Of a stretch of 64,000 nucleotides of DNA, positions 3,696 to 25,661 are shown piece by piece. The DNA is taken from assembly GCA_017610385.1 (NCBI GenBank), contig JAFCCC010000001.1:94960-158959 (forward strand), written 5' to 3'. The notes below the pieces were generated by a model that saw only the letters and a program-made list of their open reading frames with translations, did not search any database and was not told the DNA's origin. How positions within the stretch are numbered: position 1 is the stretch's first letter; each line of letters starts with the position of its first letter. A program made the translations under genes and the position numbers. The DNA is from Candidatus Nanohalarchaeota archaeon (GTDB lineage Archaea; Nanohalarchaeota; Nanosalinia; Nanosalinales; JAFCCC01).

Positions 3696-4334
3696 ATGAA
3701 AGCACTTTCCGAATTTGAAGCTAAAAAATTTCTAATTAAAAATAAAGTGCCGTGCATAAAAGATGTTCTTGTTTCTAAAAAAAGTGAATTTAAAAAAACT
3801 AAAATCAAGTTCCCAGCCTTTATGAAAATCAGTTCGCCTGATATTTTGCATAAGACTGATGCAAATTGCGTTCTAGAAGTTAAAAGAGAAGATGAATTGG
3901 ATGCGGCATTTGATCAATTATTGAAAAATGCCAAGAAATATAATCCAAAAGCGAAAATAGAGGGGGTCGTGCTTGAAGAAAAACTTTCAGGAGTGGAACT
4001 AATTGTAGGTGTAAGTGTTGATCCTCAATTTGGTCATGTAATTATGTTTGGTCTTGGTGGCATTTTTGTTGAAATTCTAAAGGATGTGAATTTTAGAGCA
4101 ATACCTTTGAATAAAAAAGATGCTTTTGAACTTATTGAAGAAATGCGCGCCAAAGGGCTTTTAGAGGGTTTTAGGAATCAAAAGAAAGTTAATAAGAGAA
4201 AAATTGCTGAATTCTTGTTAAAAATTTCTAAAATCGTTGAAAACAACCCCAATATAATTGAATTGGATATTAATCCATTATTTGCAAATGAAAAGGGTGT
4301 TATTGCAGCAGATGCATTACTACGTTTTAATTAA
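3696..4334 (+). CDS. acdB: ADP-forming acyl-CoA synthetase beta subunit (ATP-grasp)
   Basis: LSEFEAKKFL, KISSPDILHKTD, ELIVG..DPQFG.VIMFGLGGIFVEILKD, ELDINPL. Confidence 0.9.
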   Translation: MKALSEFEAKKFLIKNKVPCIKDVLVSKKSEFKKTKIKFPAFMKISSPDILHKTDANCVLEVKREDELDAAFDQLLKNAKKYNPKAKIEGVVLEEKLSGVELIVGVSVDPQFGHVIMFGLGGIFVEILKDVNFRAIPLNKKDAFELIEEMRAKGLLEGFRNQKKVNKRKIAEFLLKISKIVENNPNIIELDINPLFANEKGVIAADALLRFN

Positions 4335-7389: not shown

Positions 7390-7462
7390 ACTCAAAAACG
7401 AATTAAACCATTCTGATGCACTGCATTTTTTATAAAATTGTGTACAATATATTGAGATAAAA

Positions 7463-8113
7463 ATGGAAGTAATAATTCTTTGCGGAGGTACTGGAACAAG
7501 ATTAATGCCGCTAACTAAGAATAAGCACAAAGCTTTGGTCGAAGTTGATGGCAAACCAATAATTGAATGGCAACTTCGGTGGTTACAAAAATATGATATT
7601 GAAAAAAAGAATGTTATTTTGGCGTGCGGTCATATGTTAGAGAGCTTAAAAAACTATTTAGGAAATTCTGTAAAGTATTCTATAGAAAAAGAGCCCTTGG
7701 GCACTGGCGGAGCATTAAAACAAGCAATGAGATTGATAAAAGATGATGAATTCTTGGTTTTTAATGTTGATGATTTAAACAATATTGATTTAGGTGAATT
7801 AAAAAGAATTGGTTCTAATTCTATCTGTGTTGCAAACCCACGTTCACCTTTTGGCGTCGTTGAGCTTCAAGGAAATAAGGTTACAGGATTTATTGAAAAG
7901 CCGTTGTTAGAGGTTTGGGTTTCTATGGGAATTTATTTGCTTAACAAAGATATTATCAAAATGCTTCCAGATAAAGGCAGTCTAGAAAAAGAGGTTTTCC
8001 CAAAGATTGATTTAAAGGCCTACAAACACGAAGGTTATTGGCACACAATAAACAATATTAAACAAGCACAAGCGTTTGACGCAGAAGCATTTAAAAAAGC
8101 ATTAGATTTTTAA
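7463..8113 (+). CDS. Sugar-phosphate nucleotidyltransferase
   Basis: ILCGGTGTRLMPLT..HKALV, EKEPLGTGGAL, FIEKP. Confidence 0.88.
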   Translation: MEVIILCGGTGTRLMPLTKNKHKALVEVDGKPIIEWQLRWLQKYDIEKKNVILACGHMLESLKNYLGNSVKYSIEKEPLGTGGALKQAMRLIKDDEFLVFNVDDLNNIDLGELKRIGSNSICVANPRSPFGVVELQGNKVTGFIEKPLLEVWVSMGIYLLNKDIIKMLPDKGSLEKEVFPKIDLKAYKHEGYWHTINNIKQAQAFDAEAFKKALDF

Positions 8114-8164
8114 TTTATTTTAAAGAGAGATCATATTATTAACTGTTTCTGTCATAATGAAATT

Positions 8165-9244
8165 ATGAAAGTTTATTTGGCGTATCCCTGGATATTTCCA
8201 GATTCTCCGTATTATAAATATTTGATTGGAAACCCACCAGAAGGCGTGGAATATTTGAACGGGGCAAAACAAAATGGAGTTATTACCAATAGAAGAAAGT
8301 TTGTGTTTTCTAATAAACTAAAAAATATAATAAGAAAGTCTTTATCTTTAGCTAATCTTTCAATTCCAAATGCTCATAAAATTAAAACAAAAGAGAATTA
8401 TGATTTAATTCACTGTGCACATTGTTTGTGCAAAAATAATTCTCCTTGGGTGGCAGATTTTGAATCTGTCTGGCAGTTTTATGTCGGAAAGAAAACAAAA
8501 TGGGCAAAAAATAAAGTCAAAAAGATCTTACAAAACGAAAACTGCAAAAAAATTATGGCATGGACAGAAAAGACAAAACAAGATATAATTACAGAGTTTC
8601 CTGAAATAAAAGACAAAGTTGAAGTTGTTTATCCTGCTGTGCCTTTACAAAAACTAAAAAAGAAAGAAAATAAGAAACCCACTATTTTGTATGCAACACG
8701 CTATTTTTGGATTAAGGGTGGTTTAATTGCGCTGGAAACTTTGCGCAGATTAAAAGAAAAATATGATATTAATATTATTTTTATTTCTGATATTCCTAAG
8801 GAAATAAAAGAAAAATATAAAGACATTAAAATCCTGGATTTGGTTCCACAAAACAAATTATTTGAATATTATTCAAAATCAGATATTTTCTTTTATCCAT
8901 CTCTTATGGATACTTTTGGCTTTTCTTTGTTAGAGGCCATGTCTTTTGGATTGCCAATAGTTACAGTAAACACAGAAGCAACAAAAACAAGAAGAGAAAT
9001 AATAGAAAATGAAAAAACTGGTTTTATCTTTGACGCCAATAAAGTAAATTACAAAAATCTAGGTAAACTTGAAAATAAGATTATAAGTCAGTTGGTTAAA
9101 GATCTATCCAAATTAGTTGAGAATCGGAAATTAAGACAAAGGATGGCACATAATTGTTTAAAACTATTTAAAAATGGAAAGTTCTCAATAAATAAACGGA
9201 ATGAAAAACTAAAAAGAATTTATGATGGGGCTGTTTTTAAATGA
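8165..9244 (+). CDS. Glycosyltransferase family 4
   Basis: KG...DIFFYPSLMDTFGFSLLEAMSFGLPIV. Confidence 0.88.
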   Translation: MKVYLAYPWIFPDSPYYKYLIGNPPEGVEYLNGAKQNGVITNRRKFVFSNKLKNIIRKSLSLANLSIPNAHKIKTKENYDLIHCAHCLCKNNSPWVADFESVWQFYVGKKTKWAKNKVKKILQNENCKKIMAWTEKTKQDIITEFPEIKDKVEVVYPAVPLQKLKKKENKKPTILYATRYFWIKGGLIALETLRRLKEKYDINIIFISDIPKEIKEKYKDIKILDLVPQNKLFEYYSKSDIFFYPSLMDTFGFSLLEAMSFGLPIVTVNTEATKTRREIIENEKTGFIFDANKVNYKNLGKLENKIISQLVKDLSKLVENRKLRQRMAHNCLKLFKNGKFSINKRNEKLKRIYDGAVFK

Positions 9245-10131
9245 AAATTTCAGTGATTTCTACAGTTTTAAATGAAGAAAAAAACATATCTCAGTTTATG
9301 AAATCAATATTAAATCAATCCAAAAAGCCAGATGAAATTATAATCGTTGATGGTGGCTCAAAGGACAAAACCTTTGAAATTCTCAGAGAATTTTCACAAA
9401 AGAATAAACTATTTGCAGTTTTTCAGGAAAAAGGTGCTAATATTTCTAGAGGAAGAAATATTGCAATTAAAAAAGCGAAGGGGGATATACTTATTGTTGC
9501 TGATGCGGGATGTGTTGTCGATAAAGATTGGATTAAAAACACTATTGCATATTTTCCAGAAGCAGATGTTGTAGCAGGAAATTACAAGGCAATAACAAAA
9601 AACAATTTTGAATATTTTCAAAGCCTTTTGGTCGTTAAGTCAGTAGACCGGCCATCAAGAATGTCCTCTAGAAATATTTCTTTTAAAAAAGAATGTTGGA
9701 AAAGTGTGGGAGGATACCCTGAAGATTTTCTGACCGGAGAAGACACAAAATTTAATTTAATGTTTCAGAGAGCAGGATATAAAATAAAAATAAACCCAAA
9801 ACAAGATGTTTCTTGGGAAATGAGGCCGACTCTGAAAAAATTTGCAAGACAGTTTTATCTTTATGGAAAAGGAGATAGAAAACATGGAAATTTAATTGAA
9901 ATGAAAAAGAATCTTGCAATGGTTTCAGGATTTTGGATCTATTTTGTTTTGTTAATTTTGGCGGCTATCTTTAATTTAAAGGCATTTCTAGTATTGCTGG
10001 ATTTGCCTGTGTTTGTGTTATTTGTATTTGGAATAAAATACAGTATAAAAACAAAGAAAATCTCGGCATTATTCTGGATGCCCTTGTTATTGTTTGTTAA
10101 ACGAGTAAGTTATATTTTGGGGGCAAGTTGA
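9241..10131 (+). CDS. Glycosyltransferase family 2 with C-terminal TM helices
   Basis: ISVISTVLNEE, IIVDGGSKD, GRN, DAG, GEDT; hydrophobic C-terminus. Confidence 0.88.
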   Translation: MKISVISTVLNEEKNISQFMKSILNQSKKPDEIIIVDGGSKDKTFEILREFSQKNKLFAVFQEKGANISRGRNIAIKKAKGDILIVADAGCVVDKDWIKNTIAYFPEADVVAGNYKAITKNNFEYFQSLLVVKSVDRPSRMSSRNISFKKECWKSVGGYPEDFLTGEDTKFNLMFQRAGYKIKINPKQDVSWEMRPTLKKFARQFYLYGKGDRKHGNLIEMKKNLAMVSGFWIYFVLLILAAIFNLKAFLVLLDLPVFVLFVFGIKYSIKTKKISALFWMPLLLFVKRVSYILGAS

Positions 10132-10132
10132 A

Positions 10133-11086
10133 ATGATTGTTAATCTCATCGGAAACAGTTTTGACGAGAATTCTGGACAAGGAATTTATCGTTATTCTGC
10201 ACAATTGTATAAAAATCTAAAGTTTATCGGATTAAATGTCCATAAAAATGCCTTGGGAGATATAAACCATGTTCAACAACCAGAACTCATCTGGAAGGTC
10301 CTATTTAAAAAAAAGGTTGTTACAACCTTTCACGATCTTATGCCTATATTTATTAAAGAAAGAAAATTGTTCTTTAGATTTTTTTTCTTTTTTTCCAGTT
10401 TGGTTGCAGCCATCAAATCAAAGAAAATCATAGCAGTATCTGAATCTACAAAAAAAGATATTCTAAAATATTTTCCGTTTACAAAAAATAAGATTTGTGT
10501 TATTTATGAGGGTGTGGATCATAAACGATTTTATCCTTTAAAAAGAAAGAATAACACAAATTTTACAGTAGGATATGTAGGGGGATTAGGCAAAAGAAAG
10601 AATGTTGAAAAGATATTAGAAGCTGCTCAGTTATTTAAAGAAGATAATAAAATAAAGTTTGTTATTGCGGGAAAGGGACCAGAATTAAATTCTTTAATTG
10701 AATTAAAAAAGAGATTAGGACTAAAAAATGTGCAATTTGCTGGTTTTATTCCTGAAAACAAGTTAAATGAATTTTATAATTCTTTAGACGTGTTTGTTTT
10801 TCCTTCTTTCTATGAAGGATTCGGACTTCCCGTTTTAGAGGCAATGGCTTGTGGGGTTCCAATCATAACTTCGAATGTAAGTTCCATGCCGGAATTGGTA
10901 GGCGCTTCAGGAAGGTTTATTAATACCAAAAATTCTAATGAGGTGGTAAATGAAATAATACAAATTTTTAAAGATGAGTCCTTAAAAGAGGATCTACATA
11001 AAAAGGGATTAAACCGAGCCAAAGAATTCACTTGGGAAAAATGTGCTAAAGAACATTTAAAAATATATGCAGAATTAATAAAATGA
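10133..11086 (+). CDS. Glycosyltransferase family 4
   Basis: RKN...VFPSFYEGFGLPVLEAMACGVP, FTWEKCA. Confidence 0.92.
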   Translation: MIVNLIGNSFDENSGQGIYRYSAQLYKNLKFIGLNVHKNALGDINHVQQPELIWKVLFKKKVVTTFHDLMPIFIKERKLFFRFFFFFSSLVAAIKSKKIIAVSESTKKDILKYFPFTKNKICVIYEGVDHKRFYPLKRKNNTNFTVGYVGGLGKRKNVEKILEAAQLFKEDNKIKFVIAGKGPELNSLIELKKRLGLKNVQFAGFIPENKLNEFYNSLDVFVFPSFYEGFGLPVLEAMACGVPIITSNVSSMPELVGASGRFINTKNSNEVVNEIIQIFKDESLKEDLHKKGLNRAKEFTWEKCAKEHLKIYAELIK

Positions 11087-11219
11087 TTATAAAAATAGAT
11101 TTTATCGAATTATATTAAAACACTTACAACGATTAAAAGAAAGTAAATCCATCCAAAATAAACTAATCATTCTTAGATGCATGATTCGTTTAGAAAAATA
11201 CTTGCGCTGGTGAGAAAAT

Positions 11220-11477
11220 ATGCAAAAAATAGTTTCTATATACATCTCCACATGGAATCGTGCAGAACATCTTAAAAATATTCTAAACAATGTAGCACAA
11301 GAAGCTAAGAACTTAGAAAAATATTTGCAGATTTATATTTCAGACAATGGTTCAACAGACAATACAGAAAAAGTAGTAAAATTATTTAAAAAAAGTAGTG
11401 TAAAAAGAGTAAGAGAATTCTTATGGGAAAAATGTGCTAAAGAAACTTTGGTAGTGTATAAGGGGATTTCGAAATGA
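11220..11477 (+). pseudogene. Chimeric remnant: GT2 N-terminus joined to GT4 C-terminus
   Basis: SIYISTWNRAEHL...ISDNGSTDNT (GT2 start) followed by REFLWEKCAKETLVVY (GT4 end); 21-bp identity 11424-11444 with 11033-11053. Confidence 0.7.
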
Positions 11478-12268
11478 ACTTTAATAAAATTATAAAAGAC
11501 TATTTTAGATTAATAAAAGAGGGGGAAACTTTTAAAGATAAAGGCATTATCCTTGTTTATTTCGTACAAATGCCCATAAGACAAATTATTAAGCGTTTTA
11601 GAAAGAATTATGCGATGCGATTAATTTCTAATGTAAGCTTAAAAAATAAAGATGGGAGATATTTTTGTGGGGACAATATTTTTGCGGCATGGTGTTGTAG
11701 CACCTTGGGGGAAGAAAATGTAAGTTCGAATATCGTCTTAAATTCTGGGGTATTTGTAGATGTTGGGGCAAATGTTGGAAAATATACTGTTAAACTTGGA
11801 AATCAATTAAAGAATAAGGGAACTGTAATAGCAGTAGAGCCAGAACCAGTAAATTTCAAAGCATTACAAAAAAATGTAAAATTAAATAACCTCGAAAATG
11901 TTTTTTTGGAGAATGTTGCTTGCTCCGATTCAAACGGATTTGCAGAATTTTATATTGATGTTATGGGAAATTATGGGGGCGCTCACTCCTTAATCAAAAA
12001 AACAAAGAATAAAATAAAAGTTAAAACTCGAAGATTAGATCATATCATAGATAAACTAAAAATGGAGAATATAGACTTAATTAAAATAGATGTTGAAGGC
12101 GCAGAGGCAAACGTACTGAAAGGTGCTTCGAACGTTTTGAAGAAATATCATCCAAAAATTATCTTTGAATCCTGGAATAAAAAACAACTAGAAACCGTGA
12201 AAAACGTATTAAAACCATTTAATTATAAAATTGAAAAAATTGATAAGGAGAATTATTTAGCGTGTTAA
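11474..12268 (+). CDS. FkbM-family SAM-dependent methyltransferase
   Basis: FVDVGANVG, AVEP, LIKIDVEGAE.NVLKG. Confidence 0.9.
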   Translation: MNFNKIIKDYFRLIKEGETFKDKGIILVYFVQMPIRQIIKRFRKNYAMRLISNVSLKNKDGRYFCGDNIFAAWCCSTLGEENVSSNIVLNSGVFVDVGANVGKYTVKLGNQLKNKGTVIAVEPEPVNFKALQKNVKLNNLENVFLENVACSDSNGFAEFYIDVMGNYGGAHSLIKKTKNKIKVKTRRLDHIIDKLKMENIDLIKIDVEGAEANVLKGASNVLKKYHPKIIFESWNKKQLETVKNVLKPFNYKIEKIDKENYLAC

Positions 12269-13476: not shown

Positions 13477-14952
13477 TTATTTTCTGACCGGGGTAAATTT
13501 CCTGATCATTTCTTTGTCTTTTTTATCAAATCCTTTTAGTAAATACATTACCGAAAAATAAAGTACTATAGCTAAAAAAATAATTACAACCATCTTCATG
13601 ATTTTGGGTAAAGAAGTTTGTAAAATTAAAATGGTTGAAAAAGCCATAATCGCAGAAGAAATAATTGGCTTAAAAATGTAACTTAAGTTTAGTTTTATTT
13701 TTTTTCTTATAAACTTAATAGAAAGTAGGAATAATAATATAAGAGAAGTAACTGTGGCTATTGCGGCTCCATTAATACCCCATAACGGAATTAAGAAATA
13801 ATTCAGAATTACATTTAAAATTGCTGCAATGAATGTATACTTCATTATCTTTCTAGGCTCATTTATTCCTGCAATAAAGCTCCTAGAAATCACAATCAAA
13901 GAAGTGAAAATTGTTCCTATACTTAAAATTCTAAATGCGGGAACTGCTGCCAAGTATTCTGAAGTAAATAAAATCTGAATAATTGGTTTAGCTAATAAAA
14001 AAGATCCTGTGGCCGCTGGAAGAATGAAATAAATAGAATATTTTAATGATCGATTAAAAATCTCACCCAAACTTTTTTTATCTTTTTTTGCATTTAATTG
14101 AGAAATCATGGGAAATAATGCTACTGCTAATGCAGCCATTACCATACTTAGCAGACCTACGACAGGTAGAGCAACATTATAATAACCAACATCTTTCGCT
14201 GTTAAAAAATAACCTATAAAAAACGAATCAGTCCATCCTAAAAACGTTGCTGCAATCCCTGCCATAAAAAGTGGAACTCCAAAACTAAGTAGTTTTTTTG
14301 CTAAGTTAAACTCTGCTTTTTTGAAAATTATGGGTGTTGTGTGTTTGTAAGCTACAACAAGAAAAACGAACATCACAAAAAAACTCAAAGAATAAGCCCA
14401 AGTTGCTCCGAGAATCTTGAAACCTAAACTGAAAAATAAAATTGTAAGTAAAAACTTTGAACCTTTTTCAATTACACCAGAGAAAGAAAGAATTCCCATC
14501 TTTTGAAATCCTGTGAGTACTCCACTAAAAAGACCGCTAAATAAACTAAAAAATACTGCTAATGATCCGATTTTGAAAGGAATTACTGCTAAGGGATTAT
14601 GAAAAACATTTATTGCAAAAAAGCCTGAAAGAAAAAATAATAAAACTGAACCTAAAGTCGCTGTGAAAACGGTAATTGGTGCGGCAGTGGAAAAAATCGT
14701 ATGAATCTCTTTCTTTTGAGAAATGTATTCAGAAGTATATTTGGTTATTGCACTTGGAAGTCCTAAAGAAAAAAAGGTTGTAAAAAATCCGACCATCATT
14801 AAAACCAAAGAGAATACTCCATATTCTTCTGGTCCAAGACCTCTGGCTAAAATTATCTTATAAAAAAAAGAAATAAAATATCCTGCAAGTGAACCCATAA
14901 AAAGTAAGCTGGTCCCTTTGGCTATTTTTACAGTTAGGTTCTCTGGGTTCAT
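13477..14952 (-). CDS. Wzx/AglR-like oligosaccharide flippase (MOP superfamily)
   Basis: Many TM helices; LARGLGPEEYG, GWTDSFFIGYF...VGYYNVA, NVILNYFLIPLWGINGAAIAT. Confidence 0.9.
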   Translation of the reverse strand: MNPENLTVKIAKGTSLLFMGSLAGYFISFFYKIILARGLGPEEYGVFSLVLMMVGFFTTFFSLGLPSAITKYTSEYISQKKEIHTIFSTAAPITVFTATLGSVLLFFLSGFFAINVFHNPLAVIPFKIGSLAVFFSLFSGLFSGVLTGFQKMGILSFSGVIEKGSKFLLTILFFSLGFKILGATWAYSLSFFVMFVFLVVAYKHTTPIIFKKAEFNLAKKLLSFGVPLFMAGIAATFLGWTDSFFIGYFLTAKDVGYYNVALPVVGLLSMVMAALAVALFPMISQLNAKKDKKSLGEIFNRSLKYSIYFILPAATGSFLLAKPIIQILFTSEYLAAVPAFRILSIGTIFTSLIVISRSFIAGINEPRKIMKYTFIAAILNVILNYFLIPLWGINGAAIATVTSLILLFLLSIKFIRKKIKLNLSYIFKPIISSAIMAFSTILILQTSLPKIMKMVVIIFLAIVLYFSVMYLLKGFDKKDKEMIRKFTPVRK

Positions 14953-15177: not shown

Positions 15178-15930
15178 ATGAGTATCAAACTGACCAATCA
15201 AAAAACGATTTTACCAAATGTTTTTGTAGTTGGCGCTACACGTTGTGGAACCACTTCTTTATATCAGTACCTGGGAGAACATCCAGAAATTTATAAGCCA
15301 CCTTATAAATGTGCGGAATTATTCCTTACAGAAAAAATAGATTACAAAAAAGCTCGATTACTCTATAATAAAAGTACAGACGCCCTACGCCTAGATTGTA
15401 GCCATTATTTTCATCTTGAATCTGCTGCTGAAAGAATAAAATCCGCGGTTCCTGATGCGAAAATAATCATTGGACTTAGGCCCGCTAAAGAATTGTTTCT
15501 TTCAAGTTATATTTATCGCCAAAATAAGGGAGAAATTCCTAAAAAGCTTACCTTTGAGGAGTACACACATACGTATATGGATAAAGGAAAGTGGTATGTA
15601 GTAGAACATTTAAAATATGACCGCAACATAAATTTTTGGATTTCTCGATTCGGGAAAAAAAATGTGTTAATATTTCAATTTGAAGAACTTGCTACTGACG
15701 CACCTCAACTATGTAAAAGAATCTTTAAATTTTTGGGGGTTGATAATACTTTTAGGCCACACATCTACCAATATAACAAACGTGATAGCAACATTCCCCG
15801 TACACGTTGGTTAAATAATTTCGTTAAAAGACTACCTCTAAGCTGGCGGCTAAGAGTTAAAGAGATGTTTCCAATCTTAGAAAAAATATATTCGGAAGTA
15901 ATTTATTCTAAAATGGAAAAAGCGGAATAG
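15178..15930 (+). CDS. PAPS-dependent sulfotransferase
   Basis: PNVFVVGATRCGTTSLYQYL.EHPEI (5'-PSB loop), KIIIGLRP...S (3'-PB), IFKFLGV. Confidence 0.85.
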   Translation: MSIKLTNQKTILPNVFVVGATRCGTTSLYQYLGEHPEIYKPPYKCAELFLTEKIDYKKARLLYNKSTDALRLDCSHYFHLESAAERIKSAVPDAKIIIGLRPAKELFLSSYIYRQNKGEIPKKLTFEEYTHTYMDKGKWYVVEHLKYDRNINFWISRFGKKNVLIFQFEELATDAPQLCKRIFKFLGVDNTFRPHIYQYNKRDSNIPRTRWLNNFVKRLPLSWRLRVKEMFPILEKIYSEVIYSKMEKAE

Positions 15931-15935
15931 ATTTT

Positions 15936-16460
15936 CTAGTAATTGCATTCCTTTAAAAATGAAATAATTTCAGTTACAGATTTGTTTGGTGCTTCTTCAT
16001 AAGTATTTACAATTATTTCTGGATTTGTGGGCGGTTCGTAAGGAACATTTTCTGAAACACCTATAAAGTTTTCAATTTCGCCCCCAAGGGCCCTTTTGTA
16101 AAGCCCCTTAATGTCTCTTTTAATGCAATATTTCAAAGAGCAGTTTACATAAACTTCTATAAATTCATCGCCCAACCTTTGCCTTGCAAATCTTCTAGAC
16201 ACTGCAAATGGAGAAATTATTGGAACTAATATGAAATCATAATTTTCTTTTTCTTTGGCACAAATTTCGGCAATGAGTCTGTTATTTTCTTTAATATCTT
16301 CTGGAGTAAATCCTAAATGTGTATGAAATTTCGATCTAACTACATCTCCGTCTAGTACAAGTGTTTTTTTGTGTTTTAGAAATGGGTGTTTTATCAAGGC
16401 ATTAGAAATTGTTGTTTTCCCTGATCCAGAAAGTCCGGTGAACCAAATTATTTTTCCCAT
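15936..16460 (-). CDS. cysC: Adenylyl-sulfate (APS) kinase
   Basis: IWFTGLSGSGKTT, LDGD.VR, ISPF, RDIKGLYKRA, PYEPP. Confidence 0.95.
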   Translation of the reverse strand: MGKIIWFTGLSGSGKTTISNALIKHPFLKHKKTLVLDGDVVRSKFHTHLGFTPEDIKENNRLIAEICAKEKENYDFILVPIISPFAVSRRFARQRLGDEFIEVYVNCSLKYCIKRDIKGLYKRALGGEIENFIGVSENVPYEPPTNPEIIVNTYEEAPNKSVTEIISFLKECNY

Positions 16461-18673
16461 TACAAATCACTTACAAAAACTTTTTCCCCTGTGTTAATCT
16501 TGTTTATAATCAATTGAGAGATTTCTGGTCTCATAAACCATTCAGGGGGTTTTTTTCCTTGCATCAATAGTTTTCTAGCATGAGTTCCTGAAATGTGTTT
16601 TTTTTGAGTCTCAGGGTGATCTAAATAATCATCTTCATGTATGTGTTTGTTTTCCAATGTTGAATAAAATACCTTGTTATATTTTATAGGAATAATTCCT
16701 ATTTCCTCTTTTCCAAATTGGTCAAATATTTTGTGAGATGCCTGCGGATCATAGTAATTTTTAACTCCTGTGTGATCTCTGCCTACAATAAAGTGACTGC
16801 ATCCAAAATTTTTTCGAACTAATGCAGTAAAGACCGCTTCTCTCGGTCCTGCGTATCGAGAATATGAAGAAAATGTTGAAAAAATTACCTTACCTTTCGG
16901 ATAAATTTCGTTTATCATTTTTTCATAAGTTGTAATTATGGCACTTGCCTCAAAATCACCCTTTTTCTTTTTTCCTATAATGGGGTGAACAAATAGACCA
17001 TCACACAAAAATTTCTTCATGGCATCCATTTGAATAAACTCATGAGATCTATGAATAACATTTCTAGTATGAAACGCAACAATTTTACTCCATCCTCTCT
17101 CAGAAAAAATTCTTCTAATTTGTCTGGGTGTTAAATTATATAACTGAAAACCATTGTTTCTTCTTTTAATTAGATCTATTTTTCCTGCTAAAAAATACTG
17201 CCCCGAATCAAAAAAAGTTTTAACTCCAGGGTGATTCAAATCAGTTGTTCCAAACCATTTTTTTGCTGTGTCTTGCATATTTACTTGATAAATTTGTTCT
17301 AAATGTAATAGTGCGTGCGGTTGAGAATCCTTGTTATAAACAAGTAAAACATCTTGACCGTCCTGTAAGCCCTCGATGGTTTTAGTCTGTAATATTATTG
17401 GCATAGGCCACACAACACCGTTTTTAAGTCTCATTGTGTGCAAAACAGACATTAGATTTTCTTTATTCATAAAACCTTCTAAAGGGCTAAATGCTCCACA
17501 GGCAATTTGTTCAACATCCATAAGATTTGTTTCATCAATGCTAATTTTTGGCATTGTGAGCATTTGTTGTGAATCAAATCCTTTTTTTATATATCTCTCA
17601 ATTAGTTTGCCTCCGTGGGGTGGCACCAACAAATTGTCTGTAGTATCTGTTATATTGAATTCCGATAAATCTTTGTTTTTATCAAATTCACGTATTAGTG
17701 CAGAAAGCATATTCAAAGTTTCTATGGGATAGTTCCCGATTGCAGTCTCTTTTGTTAGAACAAATCCTGTTGCACCGTCAAATAAAGTATTTATGACATC
17801 GTTAACTTCTGATTTTGAGGGTTTACGACATACAGACATATTTTCAAGGGTATTCGTAGCAACATAAACTTCTTTATTCAATTCATTTGCTTTTTTTAAA
17901 ATGCTTTTTTGAACAAAGGGTAGTTTCTGCAAAGGTACTTCTCTGCTTAAATCTCCTCGATCTATTAAAATTCCTTCAGAAAACTCTAAAAGCTCTTCTA
18001 AATTCTCGAGAGCTTCTCTGGTTTCAATTTTGGTTAAAAATGTTGCATCACAATATAATTTCTGAAATTCCAGAAGATCTTTTTTATTATGAATGAAAGA
18101 AAGACTAAATTGTTTTACTCCGAGTTTTTTTGCGAGTTCTATTGCAAATCTGTCTTTTTCACTAAAGGTTGGAGCATCTAACTTTGGTTCTAAATGAGCT
18201 CCTTTTTGTCCACCAATCTTACCGCCCAATAAAACAGTACCTTCTACAAAACCTTCATGAATTGTTGAGGTGTTACTTATTTTAATTAATGCGGAATTAA
18301 AATCAAGGGAAATCAGTGTCCCTTCTTCAAGTTGTTCAACAACAGTTAAAGGTCTCAGAAAAAATGTTTTGTTGTCTGTCTCTACTTCTCGATTGTATAT
18401 TCGAATTTTATCTCCTTCTTCGAAAGTGATTTCATGGACATTTCCTGTCCGTATTTGGCGCCCTTCTGTATCTAACATAATTGGTACACCATATGTTTTT
18501 AATTCTATAATTTTCTTTTCAATGTCTTCTTTAGAGGTATGAGACAAATTTATGCGAAAATAATCTACAGATCTATCTTTTAATTTCTTGAGAACTTCGG
18601 GGTTAAATGATGCTTCTCCAATTGTAGCAATTATTTTTATGTTCTTAATCATAATTATCTCATGTGCATTCAT
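16460..18673 (-). CDS. sat: Pyruvate kinase-like domain fused to ATP sulfurylase (Sat)
   Basis: N-half: IIATIG, RINLSH, LDTEG.QIRTG, KIET..A, IDRGDL, VATN.LENM, DGA..VL.KETAIGNYP; C-half: PPHGGKL, GAFSPLEGFM, FHTRNVIHRSHE, RYAGPREA, HFIVGRDHTGV, ISGT. Confidence 0.9.
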   Translation of the reverse strand: MNAHEIIMIKNIKIIATIGEASFNPEVLKKLKDRSVDYFRINLSHTSKEDIEKKIIELKTYGVPIMLDTEGRQIRTGNVHEITFEEGDKIRIYNREVETDNKTFFLRPLTVVEQLEEGTLISLDFNSALIKISNTSTIHEGFVEGTVLLGGKIGGQKGAHLEPKLDAPTFSEKDRFAIELAKKLGVKQFSLSFIHNKKDLLEFQKLYCDATFLTKIETREALENLEELLEFSEGILIDRGDLSREVPLQKLPFVQKSILKKANELNKEVYVATNTLENMSVCRKPSKSEVNDVINTLFDGATGFVLTKETAIGNYPIETLNMLSALIREFDKNKDLSEFNITDTTDNLLVPPHGGKLIERYIKKGFDSQQMLTMPKISIDETNLMDVEQIACGAFSPLEGFMNKENLMSVLHTMRLKNGVVWPMPIILQTKTIEGLQDGQDVLLVYNKDSQPHALLHLEQIYQVNMQDTAKKWFGTTDLNHPGVKTFFDSGQYFLAGKIDLIKRRNNGFQLYNLTPRQIRRIFSERGWSKIVAFHTRNVIHRSHEFIQMDAMKKFLCDGLFVHPIIGKKKKGDFEASAIITTYEKMINEIYPKGKVIFSTFSSYSRYAGPREAVFTALVRKNFGCSHFIVGRDHTGVKNYYDPQASHKIFDQFGKEEIGIIPIKYNKVFYSTLENKHIHEDDYLDHPETQKKHISGTHARKLLMQGKKPPEWFMRPEISQLIINKINTGEKVFVSDL

Positions 18674-18815: not shown

Positions 18816-19178
18816 ATGACAAAAACAGAGAAACCTTGGGGGTATGAAGAAATAATATTTAACACAGAAATTGATTCTGGGAAAGGTTATATTCCTATTG
18901 CATTAAAAAAGTTTGCTGTAGACAGCGAACAAATGACTTCTTACCACATACATAAAAAAATCAATGAAATTTTGTATGTAAACAAAGGGATGATTGAAGT
19001 TAGGTTGGAAAATGATGTCATTTCTTTAAATGAAGGCCAGTCTTATTTTATTGAGACAAAAATACCTCATCAAATTCAAAATATTACATCAAAAGTTGTT
19101 GAAGTTATTGAGGTTTCTTTTCCATTTGATTTAAAGGATGAGGAAAGAATTGAGGATCCTTATTCTGAACAGAGATGA
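18816..19178 (+). CDS. Cupin-domain protein (type II mannose-6-phosphate isomerase C-terminal-like)
   Basis: EKPWG, SYHIHKKINE, PHQIQN, RIEDPY. Confidence 0.75.
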   Translation: MTKTEKPWGYEEIIFNTEIDSGKGYIPIALKKFAVDSEQMTSYHIHKKINEILYVNKGMIEVRLENDVISLNEGQSYFIETKIPHQIQNITSKVVEVIEVSFPFDLKDEERIEDPYSEQR

Positions 19179-19270
19179 TGCGTTAAATTAAACCGCAAAA
19201 GCTTATTAGGGGTTAAGTTAGCTTGTCAGAAACAAACCATTATATGTCTAGCCTAATTATAGTATGAGTT

Positions 19271-20299
19271 ATGATTATCCAAAAATATCATTATTTTGGA
19301 GAATTTGGGGGATTAATTTTTGTGGTTTTGGGCGGATTAGAAAATTTTTTTAATCTTTATCCCTCTGTAAAATTAGAAATTTGCACGTATAGAAACTATG
19401 GAATATTATTAGAACATCTGTTTCCAAAAAATGTAAGAGCCACCACAATAAAGTGGAATTTTAAAGATAATTTGAGAATAGGTTATGAATATGCAGATAG
19501 AGATTTTATAAATAATTTACATAAGAAAGGATATTTAAAAAATGTTATTGTTCTTTTTAAACAATTTTCTAATGATAAAATGGCTGTAAAATGTTTTAAT
19601 AATCTATGTTTTAACGTATTTGATAAAGATGATGCGATATATTTCAGATTAAAAAAACCTATTACCTATGGGAAAAAGTCTTCTCGTCCAAAATACATAA
19701 GCATTTTCCCAAGATTTCGGAAATTGGATAGTAAAAGAAATATTAGTAAAAAAGATTGGGAATACATACTTAAAATTCTAAAATCTTATTATAAAAATTA
19801 TAAAATTGTCGTTCATGGCTCAAATAACGAATTTTTAAAATTGAATATTGATGATGCAATTTATCCTAAAAATATTTTAGAACAAATTTATTATTTGAAT
19901 AATTCCCGCGTATGTGTTAGCCCTAATTCTGGGTTTGCACATTTTGCAGTATATTGCAAATGTCCTCTACTTGTTATCGGTATGGGCTATTGGGAATACG
20001 AAGACATAAATCCTTTTAAAGTTCCTATAAAAATAACAGACGTAAAACACGTACGAAACTCTAATGTTTTGAGAAATTTCCTTGATAAAGTTGAAAATAC
20101 AAAAGATAATTCAGAAATCAGAAAATCTTTTTATGATTTTTTATGGATTCATTATAGACAATCAAAGCGTATTGTAGGTACTTTTCTAAAGTATTATATC
20201 CCAAAAGCTTATTATTTGCTTCGGGGTCCAGATAGTTTTGATTCATATTCTGCAAAGTTAAAGAAGCAGATTTTTGACGGAATTCAAGGACGAGAGTAA
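19271..20299 (+). CDS. GT9-like (GT-B) glycosyltransferase, paralog of 23004..23927
   Basis: YFGEFG, ISIFPRFR..D..RN...W, LEQIYY, SPNSGFAHFA resembling GT9 DSGxxHxA. Confidence 0.55.
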   Translation: MIIQKYHYFGEFGGLIFVVLGGLENFFNLYPSVKLEICTYRNYGILLEHLFPKNVRATTIKWNFKDNLRIGYEYADRDFINNLHKKGYLKNVIVLFKQFSNDKMAVKCFNNLCFNVFDKDDAIYFRLKKPITYGKKSSRPKYISIFPRFRKLDSKRNISKKDWEYILKILKSYYKNYKIVVHGSNNEFLKLNIDDAIYPKNILEQIYYLNNSRVCVSPNSGFAHFAVYCKCPLLVIGMGYWEYEDINPFKVPIKITDVKHVRNSNVLRNFLDKVENTKDNSEIRKSFYDFLWIHYRQSKRIVGTFLKYYIPKAYYLLRGPDSFDSYSAKLKKQIFDGIQGRE

Positions 20300-20354
20300 T
20301 TGAAACCAGCAATACATAAAACTAAAAAATAAAAGTTTAAAAAAAGTTAATAAT

Positions 20355-21929
20355 ATGATGAGAACATTAATAATTCCGGCAGCAGGCCATAATCTTCGTA
20401 TGAAAGAATATTACTTTCCAAAATGCTTATTGCCAGTACATCAAAGACCGATTTTATTTCGAATTATCCATTCTTGGAAAAAGTTTATTGATCAAGTAAT
20501 TATTGTGGTTAATAAACAAAATCACGAAATGATCAAAGAATATATGGATAAGTATTTTACCCTAACAAATATTTCGGTTGAGTATTGCGTTCAAACTAGA
20601 AATGGGGGGACGTACTTTGCAGTTAAGCTCGCGTTAGAAAAAGCGAAAAATGATCAAGTAATCTTGAATTGGTCTGATGTATGCCTAACGAAACCTTCTA
20701 AATTAAATGCGTTTATGGATATTGAAGAGAAAAACTTGATTTTTACTACAGATAAAGTAAGATGCCGTTGGAAGTTTGATGACCAAAAATTTATTCAGGA
20801 TGAAAGTTATATTAGTTTAGATGATGGCATATTCGGCGTTTTTGTAATGAATAAAGTAAATGGAACTTTCTTAAAAAACATATCTGAAAAAGACAAAGAA
20901 GTTGAAATTTTGGAGGCTATGGACTCCAGTTCCTGCCTCAAAATAGACTTTGAAGATTTTGAGGACATAGGCGATCCAAAGAAGTACGGGTTGAATGTGC
21001 GTGGAGCCCAACAGAACGTTAGGGCTTTTGGATCACATAGCAAAATATACCAAAATAAGTCCTTTGTTATCAAAAAAAATAGTGATCCAAAACTTCAAGT
21101 TAATGAAATTAACTGGTATAAAAATAGTAATTTTTCATTTACGCCGAAAGTATACAGCTATGAGCCATTAATTTTACAAAAACTCCCTGCGGCCCCCATC
21201 GCAGAAAAACTCACCGAAGCAAATGAAGTTTTTGAAACAGAGGTAATATCCAATTTATTTGATATAGTTCAAGAAATTCATAACTTCAAAGAGCCTGTAG
21301 ACGCCAAAAATGATGATTCGTATGAACAATACATTGGAAAAACGATTAAAAGATTGGAAAAAATTAATTTTCTGTTTAAAGAATTTAATCAAAGTTCCTT
21401 CAAGATTAACGGTATTTTATGCAAGAATCCTCTGACACTACTAAAGGAAAAGGAGGAAGATATTAAATCTCAATTTACTAGAGAATTTAGATTCATTCAT
21501 GGAGATCTCCAAACATCAAATGTATTAATAGACAATAATAAGTCACTTTATGTGATAGATCCGAGAGGTTATTTCGGAAATAACCGACTTTACGGTGATC
21601 CTGCATACGACTTTGCTAAAATGTATTATGGGTTCTGTGGGGGGTATCATACATTTAGTAAAGGAAATAATCAATTCATTATACAGAATGGTGGGTTCGA
21701 AATTTTGCCGTTAATTCCAAAAACCATTGTAGAAAGAAGACGAAAAACATATATGAAGCTGCTTAAGAACATAAATTATAATAATATAACAGAAAGGAAG
21801 ATTGATTTATTACACGCCATAATTTGGATTTCTGTAGCAGAATATACTTCAAATGACGTTCTTAGTGCCATGTATGCTTATTTAAAAGGAACTTTACTAT
21901 TAAATCAATATTTCGGAGGTTTGAAATGA
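20355..21929 (+). CDS. Nucleotidyltransferase fused to APH/choline-kinase-like phosphotransferase
   Basis: N: LIIPAAG.NLRM...PKCLLPV, NWSD; C: FIHGDLQTSNVL, IDPRGYFG, YGDPAYDFAK. Confidence 0.8.
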   Translation: MMRTLIIPAAGHNLRMKEYYFPKCLLPVHQRPILFRIIHSWKKFIDQVIIVVNKQNHEMIKEYMDKYFTLTNISVEYCVQTRNGGTYFAVKLALEKAKNDQVILNWSDVCLTKPSKLNAFMDIEEKNLIFTTDKVRCRWKFDDQKFIQDESYISLDDGIFGVFVMNKVNGTFLKNISEKDKEVEILEAMDSSSCLKIDFEDFEDIGDPKKYGLNVRGAQQNVRAFGSHSKIYQNKSFVIKKNSDPKLQVNEINWYKNSNFSFTPKVYSYEPLILQKLPAAPIAEKLTEANEVFETEVISNLFDIVQEIHNFKEPVDAKNDDSYEQYIGKTIKRLEKINFLFKEFNQSSFKINGILCKNPLTLLKEKEEDIKSQFTREFRFIHGDLQTSNVLIDNNKSLYVIDPRGYFGNNRLYGDPAYDFAKMYYGFCGGYHTFSKGNNQFIIQNGGFEILPLIPKTIVERRRKTYMKLLKNINYNNITERKIDLLHAIIWISVAEYTSNDVLSAMYAYLKGTLLLNQYFGGLK

Positions 21930-23014
21930 ATCAAGAATTTGACTGGTTAATATCTGACGTAGATGGTATTCTAACAGATGGCGGTCATTATTATACTGCA
22001 GAGGGAAAGCTTATGAAAAAATTTGGAAGTAATGATAAAGATGCCCTAAAGAAACTAAATGAATTATATGTTAAAGAAATTGTTTTTATTACTGCAGACA
22101 AATTAGGTTACTCCATTTCCTGCAAGAGAATTAAGCGAGATTGGGGTCTTAATTTGAAGTTGATACCGATAGATAAAAGAAATGATTTTTTTAAGCAATT
22201 AAAAGGCAAAAAAATCTATATCGGGGATGGAATTCATGATGCGGAAGATTTCGAAGGAATAGATTTGTCTTTTGCTTTAAATAATTCTACACCGCAAGCA
22301 AAGAAAAACGCTTCAGTGGTTTTAGACACATCTAGCGGAAATAACGTATTTCCATACCTTTTAGAATTCTTGGGTCGCCGAAAGTTAAAAATTGAAAAAC
22401 CTACTGAGTCTGAAGAAACCTTAGACGCTTCTGAATTATATAGGATGTTAAAACAAATCAATTTGATTCCAGAAAAACGACAAGAAATTAATAGATTTTG
22501 TAATTCTATTAAAAATAGTTATACCGAAAAAAACAAAATTGTTTTGTGTGGTGTCGGGAAAAACGCGCTTCTAGCGAATTTAATTTGTGAATTTTTATAT
22601 CCATATAACATTACGTCAGTAGTTTTAGATCCGCATAGGGCGTTGCATGGAAATTTAGGTCTTCTAGAAAAAGACGACATATTAATTATGACTTCTAAAA
22701 GTGGTAATACTGCAGAATTAGTTCACTTGATGAAATGTCTTCAAAATAAGGGAGATATCGAAAATAAATTTTTACTTACATGTAATAAAGACTGTGAACT
22801 GGCGAAATACGATATAAAATGTATCCTTTCTGTCCCTGTATCTGATGAAGTTTCGCGATTTAATCATTCTCCTCAGACAACTTTCGTGGTTTTTGCAATT
22901 ATTTTATTTTTGGTGGTAAATGCTTTAGCAAATACAAAAGAAATGACTCAGATAGATTATTTGTTGAATCACCAAGCAGGAGAAATCGGAAAGGTTTTAC
23001 GCAATGAAAGATAA
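21926..23014 (+). CDS. KdsC-like HAD phosphatase fused to KdsD-like SIS sugar-phosphate isomerase
   Basis: DVDGILTDG, IGDGIHD (HAD); GVGKN, ALHGNLG, SKSGNTAEL, NHQAGEIG (KpsF/KdsD-like SIS, no CBS pair). Confidence 0.8.
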   Translation: MNQEFDWLISDVDGILTDGGHYYTAEGKLMKKFGSNDKDALKKLNELYVKEIVFITADKLGYSISCKRIKRDWGLNLKLIPIDKRNDFFKQLKGKKIYIGDGIHDAEDFEGIDLSFALNNSTPQAKKNASVVLDTSSGNNVFPYLLEFLGRRKLKIEKPTESEETLDASELYRMLKQINLIPEKRQEINRFCNSIKNSYTEKNKIVLCGVGKNALLANLICEFLYPYNITSVVLDPHRALHGNLGLLEKDDILIMTSKSGNTAELVHLMKCLQNKGDIENKFLLTCNKDCELAKYDIKCILSVPVSDEVSRFNHSPQTTFVVFAIILFLVVNALANTKEMTQIDYLLNHQAGEIGKVLRNER

Positions 23015-23966: not shown

Positions 23967-24938
23967 TTAAAGCAACAAAAGAGGACCAATAATACATAAT
24001 ACCACTTCTAGCGTGATAATACAAAACACAACTTTCTTTTCAGTTGCTTTTTTGCCCATAAACACGTGAGTTAAAGAGTAAATTTTTGGGTATGGTCTGT
24101 GCAAAGTTCCGTCTTTTTGTGGAATTCCAAAGGATTCTGCCTTTAATTTGCTTCTAAGTTTTAGTGCTCCCTCTATGAAGTACGGAATAAACAACAATAA
24201 AGCCAATTTCTCCATGTTTCCTAAAATAGCCACAATGGCGATAAGAGCACCTATTGGATATGTTAAAGAGTCTCCTGGGAAAACTTTGCTCGGGTATTTA
24301 TTAAATGTTAAAAATCCCAATAAACAGGCGACCATTGAGAAAGCGATTGCAGATAAACCAATTTGCCCTTGGGAATATGCAATGGAACCCATGGTAGATA
24401 AAATAACCGTTCCCATCAATGCTTCTAAGCCATTTAACCCTGCAAGTATATTAAAGGCATTGGACGCACCAATAATCGCAATTGGGATAATAACCAGAGC
24501 ATATAACCAACTTAAATCTACAGAACCAATAAATGGAAGATTCATAATTGAATTACCCGCATTAATTACAATCAACGGAATAGCAATTGGGATAGTTAAT
24601 AAAGGCTTTTGCCACTGTTTCAATCCTTTTTTCCAACCCAAAATATCATCTACAAATCCAATAAATCCAGCAAGCAATACAGAAACCAATACTGCGAAAA
24701 CTACAACCAAATTAGCGTCTGTATGAAAAATAAATGTCTTAATAAACACGTAACCAAGCAACGCAATAGCAAAAGACACTAAAACAGCTATGCCACCTGA
24801 TTCTGCAACCAACGGTTTATCTAACTTATTCATATCTTTTCCAGTTAGGTTAGAACGTCTAGCGACCTTAATCCAAGATTTAGTAAAAAATAAACTTACA
24901 AAGAATAAAACAACATAAAGTATAATTTGCCCCCACAT
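23967..24938 (-). CDS. aglH: UDP-GlcNAc:dolichol-phosphate GlcNAc-1-phosphate transferase (AglH/GPT family)
   Basis: GKDMNK...VAESGG, GFVDD, NAFNILAGLNGLE, FNKYPSKVFPGD; polytopic. Confidence 0.85.
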   Translation of the reverse strand: MWGQIILYVVLFFVSLFFTKSWIKVARRSNLTGKDMNKLDKPLVAESGGIAVLVSFAIALLGYVFIKTFIFHTDANLVVVFAVLVSVLLAGFIGFVDDILGWKKGLKQWQKPLLTIPIAIPLIVINAGNSIMNLPFIGSVDLSWLYALVIIPIAIIGASNAFNILAGLNGLEALMGTVILSTMGSIAYSQGQIGLSAIAFSMVACLLGFLTFNKYPSKVFPGDSLTYPIGALIAIVAILGNMEKLALLLFIPYFIEGALKLRSKLKAESFGIPQKDGTLHRPYPKIYSLTHVFMGKKATEKKVVFCIITLEVVLCIIGPLLLL

Positions 24939-24989: not shown

Positions 24990-25661
24990 TCATTTCTCTA
25001 AAATGTAAATTCCTCCAAAATTTTTGATTATCTTAAAATTTGTACGTGAAAGTAGATCTTGAAGTTCTATATGAGAATATCTTGAAACAGTAACCAAAAA
25101 ACCACATCCGCCAAAAGTACGATAAATTTTAGAAGTCAACAACCACAATGCGGAATGTAATCTATGCTTCATGGAAGGCGCTTTTAGTGCAAACTGCACC
25201 GCACAACGTCCGTTTTGAGCAAGATTCTGATAAAATTTTTCCAAAGTTCGTAAAGACAAATAGGCTGGCAAATGATAAAAAGTCTCAAGACAAATAATTG
25301 CATCTACTGGTTGTTCTAACTTCAATTCGGACAAATCTTGCAAAATAAGACGATAATTTTTAAAATTATGATTTTTTAATACCGTGTCTGCTTTTTTTAA
25401 GGCGGTAGGAGACACATCAACACCCAAAACTCTGTAATTTAAACCAAGAAGCTGAGTTGCAATTCGCGCCAAGGGACCGATTCCAGCATCAAGAATTGCG
25501 CCATCTTGTTTGATTTTGGGTAAAATTTCCTTTTTTATGATTTCTATATCTGAATCCGTATGCATCTGAATAACCTTGGCGCTCGCAGTCTTTCCTAAAA
25601 CTACGTGTTCTGATCGTTGTTTTTTTGACTTTTCTTCCCACACTGTAGAATACCATTTCAC
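24990..25661 (-). CDS. Class I SAM-dependent methyltransferase
   Basis: ILDAGIGP, VLGVDVS, D.IICLETFYHL. Confidence 0.8.
   Translation of the reverse strand: MKWYSTVWEEKSKKQRSEHVVLGKTASAKVIQMHTDSDIEIIKKEILPKIKQDGAILDAGIGPLARIATQLLGLNYRVLGVDVSPTALKKADTVLKNHNFKNYRLILQDLSELKLEQPVDAIICLETFYHLPAYLSLRTLEKFYQNLAQNGRCAVQFALKAPSMKHRLHSALWLLTSKIYRTFGGCGFLVTVSRYSHIELQDLLSRTNFKIIKNFGGIYILEK

Follow-up and report, generated by a model that had tools for sequence, protein, structure and literature searches.

The window analysed here, a 64,000-nt stretch of the genome of a Candidatus Nanohalarchaeota archaeon (G000), carries on its minus strand a 737-aa open reading frame (ORF; 16460..18673, in window numbering) in which a pyruvate kinase (PK) barrel, a PUA domain and an ATP sulfurylase (Sat) are joined into one PK-PUA-Sat fusion, as seen in the ORF list, Pfam, NCBIfam and an AlphaFold2 (AF2) model. 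Numbering residues along the 737-aa protein, the fusion starts with a PK A/B barrel (residues 10-319; 17717..18646), which was recognised by PF00224 (E 1.5e-55), by structural superposition and by its conserved catalytic residues. It continues with a linker (residues 320-350; 17624..17716), the PUA_2 domain of ATP sulfurylase (residues 351-504; 17162..17623; PF14306, E 5.8e-45) and the ATP sulfurylase catalytic domain (residues 512-723; 16505..17140; PF01747, E 1.3e-75), all on the minus strand. The PF00224 match scored 189 bits against a gathering cut-off of 30 and spanned profile positions 2-327 of 328. No match to PF02887, the C-terminal domain of PK (PK_C), was found by Pfam in the 737-aa protein; the PK half stops at approximately residue 330 and PUA_2 comes next. 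The initial annotation had described the ORF as a PK A/B barrel joined to a complete Sat and lacking the C-terminal allosteric domain, and the Pfam domains bear this out, as do the motifs it had named, which are all present (KIET, RGDL, ATN and ETA in the PK half; HTRN, HxxH and GRDH in the Sat half).

In NCBIfam, all PK models fell below their cut-offs, with the PK equivalog TIGR01064 giving 226 bits where 306.4 are required, which is expected because the C-domain is missing. The Sat half scored above the curated cut-offs of both NF003166 (424.5 vs 387) and TIGR00339 (359.4 vs 322.95). The model for bifunctional Sat-CysC synthases of 3'-phosphoadenosine 5'-phosphosulfate (PAPS), NF004040, gave 277.7 bits, which is far below its cut-off of 669.

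The stop codon of the fusion overlaps by 1 bp (TAATG) with the start of cysC (15936..16460, minus strand), which encodes a 174-aa kinase of adenosine 5'-phosphosulfate (APS; APS_kinase in Pfam, E 8.2e-46; TIGR00455, 169.9 bits vs a cut-off of 138.7). The translational coupling of the two genes that had been proposed could therefore be read directly at their junction. A sulfotransferase ORF of 250 aa lies on the plus strand (15178..15930) and is convergent on cysC, ending 5 bp from the cysC stop. It matched PF00685 with 57.4 bits against a cut-off of 22 (Sulfotransfer_1, E 1.9e-15) as well as PF13469, in agreement with its earlier assignment, and had no match in NCBIfam.

The AF2 model of the whole fusion, which was built with the family alignment, had a mean predicted local distance difference test score (pLDDT) of 94.2 and a predicted template modelling score (pTM) of 0.91 over the 737 residues. 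The pLDDT was above 90 outside residues ~331-350 in the linker, where it was 74-81. Because the pTM of the whole chain is 0.91, the model suggests that the PK and Sat halves are held in a fixed inter-domain arrangement, as a rigid two-enzyme body. Using Foldseek, the Sat half was matched to 8a8d with a template modelling (TM) score of 0.94 and a root-mean-square deviation (rmsd) of 2.1 Å, and the PK half to the muscle PKs of rabbit and human with an rmsd of ~2.5 Å. No solved chain spanning both halves was found by Foldseek, the best query-normalised TM score being 0.49.

The fusion is a genuine gene, and neither an assembly nor a frameshift artefact, because the same continuous architecture was found in 120 of 120 listed homologues and in 80 of 80 kept genome loci; the alternative of two separate ORFs, raised in the initial annotation, is thereby answered. 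The listed homologues have 48-62% identity and cover 96% or more of the query, except for two shorter ones (64% and 81%), one of which is the window's own protein. All 120 contain PF00224, PF14306 and PF01747, and 20 of them add an APS_kinase domain, giving PK-Sat-CysC triple fusions. A scan of genome loci, with one genome per species, was guided by the family alignment (A1), as a single-protein query alone gave no relatives. At least 400 loci encoding relatives were found in this way, and the best 80 of the 400 are all full-length, 42-57% identical and cover the query from approximately residue 1-13 to residue 733-737. Going by record titles, among which some third-party annotation (TPA) labels appear unreliable, these 80 include archaea (Pace-, Woese- and Nanoarchaeia and Micrarchaeota), many lineages of the candidate phyla radiation (CPR) and further groups such as Omnitrophota, Planctomycetota, Chloroflexota, Acidobacteriota, Actinomycetota and NC10. 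With HMMER, 1.84 billion representatives clustered at 50% identity were searched, and the best 150 hits contained 63 full PK+Sat proteins, and therefore at least 63 clusters; the others were partial or other forms (39, of which 38 had parts of both halves), Sat only (41) or PK only (7).

The residues of the PK half were compared between 80 fused proteins and 20 canonical PKs, four of which came from relatives of G000 and 16 were paralogues from fusion-bearing genomes. The fused set, like all ORF-based counts, consists of 79 loci and the window; the fusion ORF of L015 was not recovered by ORF calling. In the fused family, R40, N42, S44, D68, R75, K157, K215, E217, R239, G240 and D241 are invariant (80/80), and T69 (79/80), T273 (75/80, the other five having Ser) and E309 (79/80) are nearly so. 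The core residues common to the fused and the canonical PKs include R40, N42, S44, H45, D68, R75, K157, D174, S192, K215, E217, R239, G240, D241, T273, E289, D292 and E309. Apart from R75 and K157, the positions were mapped to rabbit PK from alignments and from the numbering as we take it to be, and the core presumably comprises the phosphate-binding Arg, the Asn, Ser, Asp and Thr of the K+ site, the catalytic Lys, the Glu and Asp ligands of Mg2+, and a Thr. The rabbit counterparts of R75 and K157 are R119 and K206, which, according to the available text of PMC8835810, contact the β-phosphate and the ribose of ADP.

Other positions lining the active site differ between the two groups. At loop positions 69/70/73 the fused family has T/E/Q (in 79, 78 and 80 of 80), compared to T-K-E in six canonical PKs and L/I/V with Q/P/E and K/R in the other 14. 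Position 238 is D in 80/80 fused proteins and A in 20/20 canonical PKs, position 243 is S in 78/80 vs G in 17 and A in three, and position 274 is N in 80/80 vs Q in 18 and E in two. The signature of the fused family is a T-E-Q loop, DRGDxS and TN at active-site-lining positions. As far as the accessible parts of PMC8835810 and PMC4374775 describe them, the published classes of PK are K+-dependent with T113/K114/E117 or K+-independent with L113/Q114/K117, and T69/E70/Q73 fits neither. One protein (P0143), with the PK barrel, PK_C, PUA_2 and Sat, has the canonical K-type loop, yet D238 and S243 are already present in it, so the D238/S243 motif tracks the Sat fusion.

A maximum-likelihood tree was built from 100 PK domains, the 80 fused and the 20 canonical, including paralogues from the same genomes. 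The fused domains form one clade, split from the canonical PKs at a branch with a Shimodaira-Hasegawa-like approximate likelihood ratio test (SH-aLRT) value of 100, which provides the PK-half phylogeny that the initial annotation had called for. Their PF00224 scores are also lower (189-260 bits vs 330-441 bits). Judged by its residues, the fused PK would be a divergent, catalytically complete PK, in a clade of its own and without the allosteric C-domain. Relaxed selection on the PK half of G000 was considered and rejected: the identity gap (Sat minus PK) of G000 ranks first of 80 but is tied with its clade mates, and the gaps to its nearest relatives, 0.06-0.08, are near the family mean (0.046 ± 0.071). 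The fused PK of G000 is not decaying, and keeps all family-invariant residues. Stand-alone PKs of 339-348 aa with the canonical signature and no C-terminal domain were also seen in small carrier genomes (G092:C2, G117:C1 and G118:C165, the genomes of L101, L102 and L103), and three stand-alone PKs of 345-376 aa with the fused-type signature (P0211, P0219 and P0264) may be split forms or fragments.

The C-terminal half is predicted to be a working ATP sulfurylase, which converts ATP and sulfate to APS and pyrophosphate (PPi). H541-x-x-H544 and G631-R-D-H634 are invariant in alignment A1, and the best sequence match of this half was the Sat of 8a8d (E 6.2e-90), with 2gks matched at E 9.1e-67. 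The fused Sat reads FHTRN in 80/80, where five stand-alone Sats of relatives of G000 and three solved Sats read FQTRN.

The APS kinase is a frequent but not universal companion of the fusion. Among 80 proteins or loci, it is fused in 19, adjacent downstream in 23, adjacent upstream in one, on the same strand elsewhere in seven and undetected in the flank in 30. With iterated profiles, an APS-kinase domain was found in 50 of 81 loci and at least one sulfotransferase in 44; 14 loci had neither, four of which are contigs of less than 6.5 kb. When the 31 genomes without a nearby CysC were searched as whole assemblies, 20 had a strong APS kinase at another place or at the edge of a contig. In several of the other 11 (G070, G071, G073, G075-G078, G091, G098, G105 and G124), a sulfotransferase divergently adjoins PK-Sat, as in the pattern of L016-L021.

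Several variants of the APS kinase were observed beside the fusion. Directly downstream of PK-Sat in L038 (2391-3311) is an APS kinase with an N-terminal PQ-loop/SWEET-like domain, which would be a membrane-anchored CysC, and ORFs of ~302-307 aa beside fusions in other loci were likened to it. A fusion of APS kinase with an inositol-monophosphatase (CysQ-type PAP phosphatase) adjoins PK-Sat in L064 (5652-7028, Pfam-scanned) and L056 (10254-11645). In Chloroflexota-labelled loci, a second protein with PUA_2, Sat-like and APS-kinase domains is found near the fusion (L091:9842-11605, L068:2828-4519 and L078:12084-13778). The Sat-like motifs of these three are degenerate (e.g. QPHSS vs QTRN), which suggests that this domain is non-catalytic; a similar protein in L074 (187-1977) has QTRN intact.

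Clustering of the neighbouring genes placed the 80 loci in glycan-biosynthesis clusters, in which several sulfotransferase families recur. The neighbours include an NAD-dependent sugar epimerase/dehydratase (56 of 80 loci), a DegT aminotransferase (27), a polysaccharide flippase (26), a CMP-sugar-type cytidylyltransferase (15), UDP-GlcNAc 2-epimerase (12) and NeuB (9). The window has the same setting. The genes for UDP-GlcNAc 2-epimerase, a nucleotidyltransferase (NTP transferase), three glycosyltransferases and an FkbM methyltransferase (6286..12268, plus strand) and for a polysaccharide flippase (Polysacc_synt/MatE/MurJ-like; 13477..14952, minus strand), whose family is the one counted in the 26 related loci, lie on one side of the sulfation genes. 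On the other side are sugar-nucleotide genes for a cupin, an unknown 342-aa protein, an NTP_transf_3+APH-type kinase and a HAD+SIS protein (18816..23014, plus strand), all assigned by Pfam, followed by an AglH-type phospho-sugar transferase (Glycos_transf_4, GT4; 23967..24938, minus strand; PF00953, E 7.6e-37) and an 861-aa STT3/AglB oligosaccharyltransferase (25658..28243, minus strand; PF02516, E 5.7e-12). The placement of the fusion inside an aglB/aglH glycosylation locus in the initial annotation is therefore sound. Within this locus, overlapping ORFs of 145 and 138 aa (12356-13145) weakly match successive parts of Glyco_transf_4 and may be a frameshifted or split glycosyltransferase. At 20355-23014, the NTP_transf_3+APH-type kinase fusion (524 aa) and the HAD phosphatase+SIS isomerase fusion (362 aa) that follows it look like a compact pathway for an activated sugar, possibly of heptose type. 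The window also encodes Orc1/Cdc6, the small subunit of PolD, an ACD beta-type ATP-grasp_5 protein (3696-4334, Pfam) and a 1647-aa ORF (31729-36672, plus strand); the first two identify the organism as archaeal.

The copy in G000 stands out within its phylum. The phylum has 70 species representatives, all in a single class and order, and G000 alone among them carries the fusion (1/70 at E <= 1e-100). At E <= 1e-20, its relatives have PK only (26 genomes) or Sat only (7 genomes), and never both in one frame; the PK-only frames are ~390-680 aa long, mostly 466-522. In the PK-domain tree, the PK of G000 nests with 95 support in a clade of 18 sequences, most of which have Pace- or Woesearchaeota titles. 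Two members of this clade, L014 and L029, have CysCs next to their fusions to which the CysC of G000 is 62-65% identical, and the best hits of the sulfotransferase of G000 (31-32%) are likewise in this clade. From this combination of sole carriage, PK nesting and likeness of CysC and sulfotransferase to the same clade, the sulfation module of G000 was probably acquired horizontally as a unit from a Nanoarchaeota-type donor. Archaeal and bacterial copies are interleaved throughout the PK tree, therefore transfer is common in the family.

The metabolism of G000 (788 kb in 18 contigs, 93.5% complete and 0.45% contaminated) was searched with Pfam models, for each of which the recovery in 14 positive controls is given in brackets. 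PF00224 had one match, the fusion itself (14/14), so the separate canonical pyk that the initial annotation had proposed to look for is not there. No match was obtained in G000 for Enolase_C (14/14), PEP-utilizers_C (PPS/PPDK/EI; 14/14), PGK (14/14), PEPCK_GTP (2/14), PEPCK_ATP (5/14), DAHP_synth_1 (11/14), NeuB (9/14), ATP-synt_ab (14/14), family-I pyrophosphatase (10/14) or Inositol_P/CysQ (14/14). The synthesis of 3-deoxy-D-manno-octulosonate (KDO) or sialic acid as another user of phosphoenolpyruvate (PEP) in G000 was rejected, as DAHP_synth_1, NeuB and KdsA were all missing. A 627-aa 2-oxoacid:ferredoxin oxidoreductase with POR_N, TPP_enzyme_C and Fer4 domains is encoded at L110:1432-3315, and together with the ACD beta-type ATP-grasp_5 gene it means that ATP could come from the oxidation of 2-oxoacids. 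The idea that the fused PK is the only ATP-forming enzyme of G000 was ruled out by these two genes. The energy metabolism looks limited to 2-oxoacid oxidation and whatever the fused PK can do, and the fermentative small-genome lifestyle suggested earlier remains plausible in view of these two genes and the lack of the ATP synthase a/b match.

In the other carriers, the copy number of PK depends on genome size. Of 50 small carriers (0.5-2.2 Mb), 42 have no PF00224 match other than the fusion and five have a canonical second PK, so that the fused PK is the sole PK in most of the reduced carrier genomes. Enolase was found in 40 of these 50 and PPS/PPDK in 38, so most of the small carriers are able to form PEP, which speaks for a PEP-driven role. 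Among 30 further carriers, including genomes of 2.5-10.4 Mb, 22 have a canonical PK (330-441 bits) beside the fusion (189-260 bits), which makes the fused PK a dedicated paralogue in free-living bacteria.

The thermodynamics of sulfate activation are unfavourable, and the reaction is pulled by fused or coupled helpers such as APS kinase, pyrophosphatase and the CysN GTPase. We propose that the fused PK is a helper of this kind, recycling ADP to ATP with PEP for PAPS synthesis and glycan sulfation. The Sat half would form APS and PPi from ATP and sulfate, and the coupled CysC would convert APS to PAPS with the release of ADP. The PK half would then use PEP to turn this ADP into ATP and pyruvate, so removing the ADP of CysC and returning ATP, and would avoid a dead-end enzyme-ADP-APS complex on the APS kinase. 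The adjacent sulfotransferase could draw on this PAPS for sulfating a surface glycan or an N-linked glycan made by the AglB/AglH locus. In G000 the scheme would depend on PEP derived from a host. With this dependence included, we hold the proposal with moderate confidence.

The tethered, PEP-driven ATP regeneration put forward in the initial annotation holds up in part. The catalytic and ADP-contact residues are kept, and the need to remove ADP has been documented in vitro: as reported in the available text of PMC9885120, when human PAPSS1 was used without PK and PEP, ADP accumulated and PAPS was 'practically missing', because APS kinase is trapped in a dead-end complex with ADP and APS. Helper domains also recur on Sat, including APS kinase, the eukaryotic pyrophosphatase described in PMC2275785 and a type-I phosphodiesterase/nucleotide pyrophosphatase that is joined to PK and Sat in P0158 and to Sat in P0258, and they fit the same logic of recharging or pulling. 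P0143 and P0158 are independent architectures in which PK is likewise linked to Sat.

Four observations weigh against this proposal. No PEP-forming enzyme (enolase, PGK, PPS/PPDK or PEPCK) and no second PK were matched in the 93.5%-complete G000, therefore a PEP-driven unit would need imported PEP, which most plausibly comes from outside the cell, from the host; similarly, neither enolase nor PPS/PPDK was found in eight of the 50 small carriers, in all of which the set of PK catalytic residues is complete. Moreover, 11 of 81 carriers have no APS kinase above P-loop noise in their whole assemblies, and there is therefore no pathway ADP to recycle in those 11. The recycling of CysC's ADP is thus not the whole story for the family, even with an APS-kinase domain in 50 of 81 loci. 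Seven of the 11 have Pacearchaeota or Nanoarchaeota titles and lie in a tree clade near the copy of G000; in the 11 carriers, the sulfotransferase may use APS, a non-orthologous kinase may stand in, or the assemblies may have gaps. PK is also fused to Sat, which releases PPi and not ADP, rather than to CysC. Finally, fixed non-canonical residues surround both active sites, E70, Q73, D238, S243 and N274 in PK and the HTRN of Sat, and those in PK could mean an altered cation or substrate preference.

These residues are the starting point for another explanation, in which the PK-like half has kept the phosphotransfer machinery and taken on another donor, acceptor or cation (e.g. other nucleoside diphosphates, or a substrate specific to sulfate activation). 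It would account for the family-specific D238, S243 and N274, for a T69-E70-Q73 loop outside both published classes, for the tracking of Sat fusion by D238/S243 (P0143) and for the change in the Sat half itself (HTRN in 80/80 vs QTRN), as well as for the persistence of the domain in nine genomes without a visible PEP source and 11 without CysC. However, the residues that we take to contact PEP/pyruvate, Mg2+ and the transferred phosphoryl group are unchanged, as are the two ADP contacts, no neighbouring gene points to an alternative substrate, and some of the absences could be due to the incompleteness of metagenome-assembled genomes. In addition, Gln117 is found in some ordinary crenarchaeal PKs, according to the part of PMC4374775 that was available. 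We regard such a change of substrate as unlikely. The same four misfits keep a bolder reading of altered chemistry alive, in which PK-Sat is a co-adapted, mechanistically distinct machine whose signature and HTRN mean that a high-energy phosphoryl donor is coupled directly to the activation of sulfate. This is speculative and unlikely, but if true it would explain how the fusion persists without CysC (11/81) or endogenous PEP (G000 and 8/50), and the sulfation of G000 glycans on host PEP would directly report the piracy of metabolites by a DPANN symbiont.

The fused PK could also simply be the only housekeeping PK of the cell, with the link to Sat favouring co-expression or stability and leaving sulfate activation kinetically uncoupled. 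The reduced genomes lend themselves to this, as the fusion is the single PF00224 match in 42 of 50 with a second PK in only five, enolase in 40 of them makes a glycolytic role possible there, and G000 has no other PK. The explanation is nevertheless unlikely, since a canonical PK accompanies the fusion in 22 of the 30 larger carriers, the fused PKs form a divergent clade of their own that lacks the regulatory C-domain, and the PK domain is conserved in G000 and eight of the 50 others that have no glycolytic source of PEP. The fusion is also placed in glycan and sulfation clusters away from glycolytic genes, and the pTM of 0.91 suggests a fixed two-domain body. The lack of PEP-forming enzymes in G000 would also fit a PK half that is a non-catalytic scaffold, or a PEP/ADP sensor regulating Sat, like the APS-kinase-like regulatory domain of fungal ATP sulfurylase. 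Metal ligands, catalytic Lys and nucleotide contacts that are invariant in 80 sequences of 42-57% identity to the query are unexpected for a mere scaffold, however, and the PK half of G000 shows no genome-specific decay by the identity gap given above, making this a very unlikely explanation. PEP-driven recycling of ADP for PAPS synthesis remains the explanation that we favour.

A widespread new domain architecture of PAPS-synthesis enzymes appears to be described here, as no paper on a PK-Sat protein, and thus no prior characterisation, was found in full-text searches, which did not extend to supplements or subscription journals; members of the fused-PK clade could already be present in the PK alignments that accompany PMC4374775 as supplements. 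In databases, the family members are named only 'sulfate adenylyltransferase', 'ATP sulfurylase' or 'pyruvate kinase', and a DPANN metagenomics paper, in the part available, counts PYK and sulfate adenylyltransferase as two distinct functions (PMC8091004). In the accessible portion of a survey of Sat fusions, the partners are APS kinase, pyrophosphatase and APS reductase, interpreted as devices for pulling or channelling, with no mention of pyruvate kinase (PMC2275785).

The closest known systems share parts of the arrangement. Bifunctional PAPS synthases (Aquifex aeolicus, 2gks; human PAPSS1, 2qjf; NF004040) likewise fuse Sat to a helper from the same pathway, whereas the partner in PK-Sat is an N-terminal PK barrel, the CysC of G000 is a separate gene overlapping by 1 bp, and APS kinase is added as a third domain in 19/80 of the family. 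In the Sat-pyrophosphatase and Sat-APS reductase fusions of stramenopiles, haptophytes and Heterocapsa, as far as PMC2275785 could be consulted, the fused enzyme also removes a product or channels APS; those fusions are eukaryotic and act on PPi or APS, whereas PK-Sat would handle ADP and ATP. Engineered PAPS cascades, as presented in the available text of PMC9885120, similarly combine Sat and APS kinase with PK and PEP for removing ADP and restoring ATP, but with separate commercial enzymes in vitro, whereas in PK-Sat the activities would lie in one natural polypeptide and a coupled gene. Canonical PKs with PF00224 and PF02887 (2e28, 3t05 and rabbit muscle 2g50/8f6m) have the same A/B barrel fold and all core catalytic residues; the fused PK differs in its missing allosteric domain, separate clade, lower Pfam score and own signature at five active-site-lining positions. 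The stand-alone archaeal Sat of Methanothermococcus thermolithotrophicus (8a8d), the best match of the Sat half in both sequence and structure, has no PK domain and has QTRN where the fusion has HTRN.

A natural PK fusion would add a fourth strategy for driving sulfate activation, in which ATP regeneration and ADP removal are carried on board. The same trick is used by bio-engineers in vitro, and PK-Sat could give a compact biocatalyst for the supply of PAPS. As the fusion is the only PK in many reduced genomes, calls of 'PYK present' that are based on it may overstate glycolysis; G000, which lacks any lower glycolysis, poses the question of where its PEP comes from or which other substrate its PK might use. 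Carriers are common among DPANN archaea and CPR bacteria, and the fusion is almost always located in surface-glycan clusters, which predicts that sulfated glycans are widespread on the smallest known cells.

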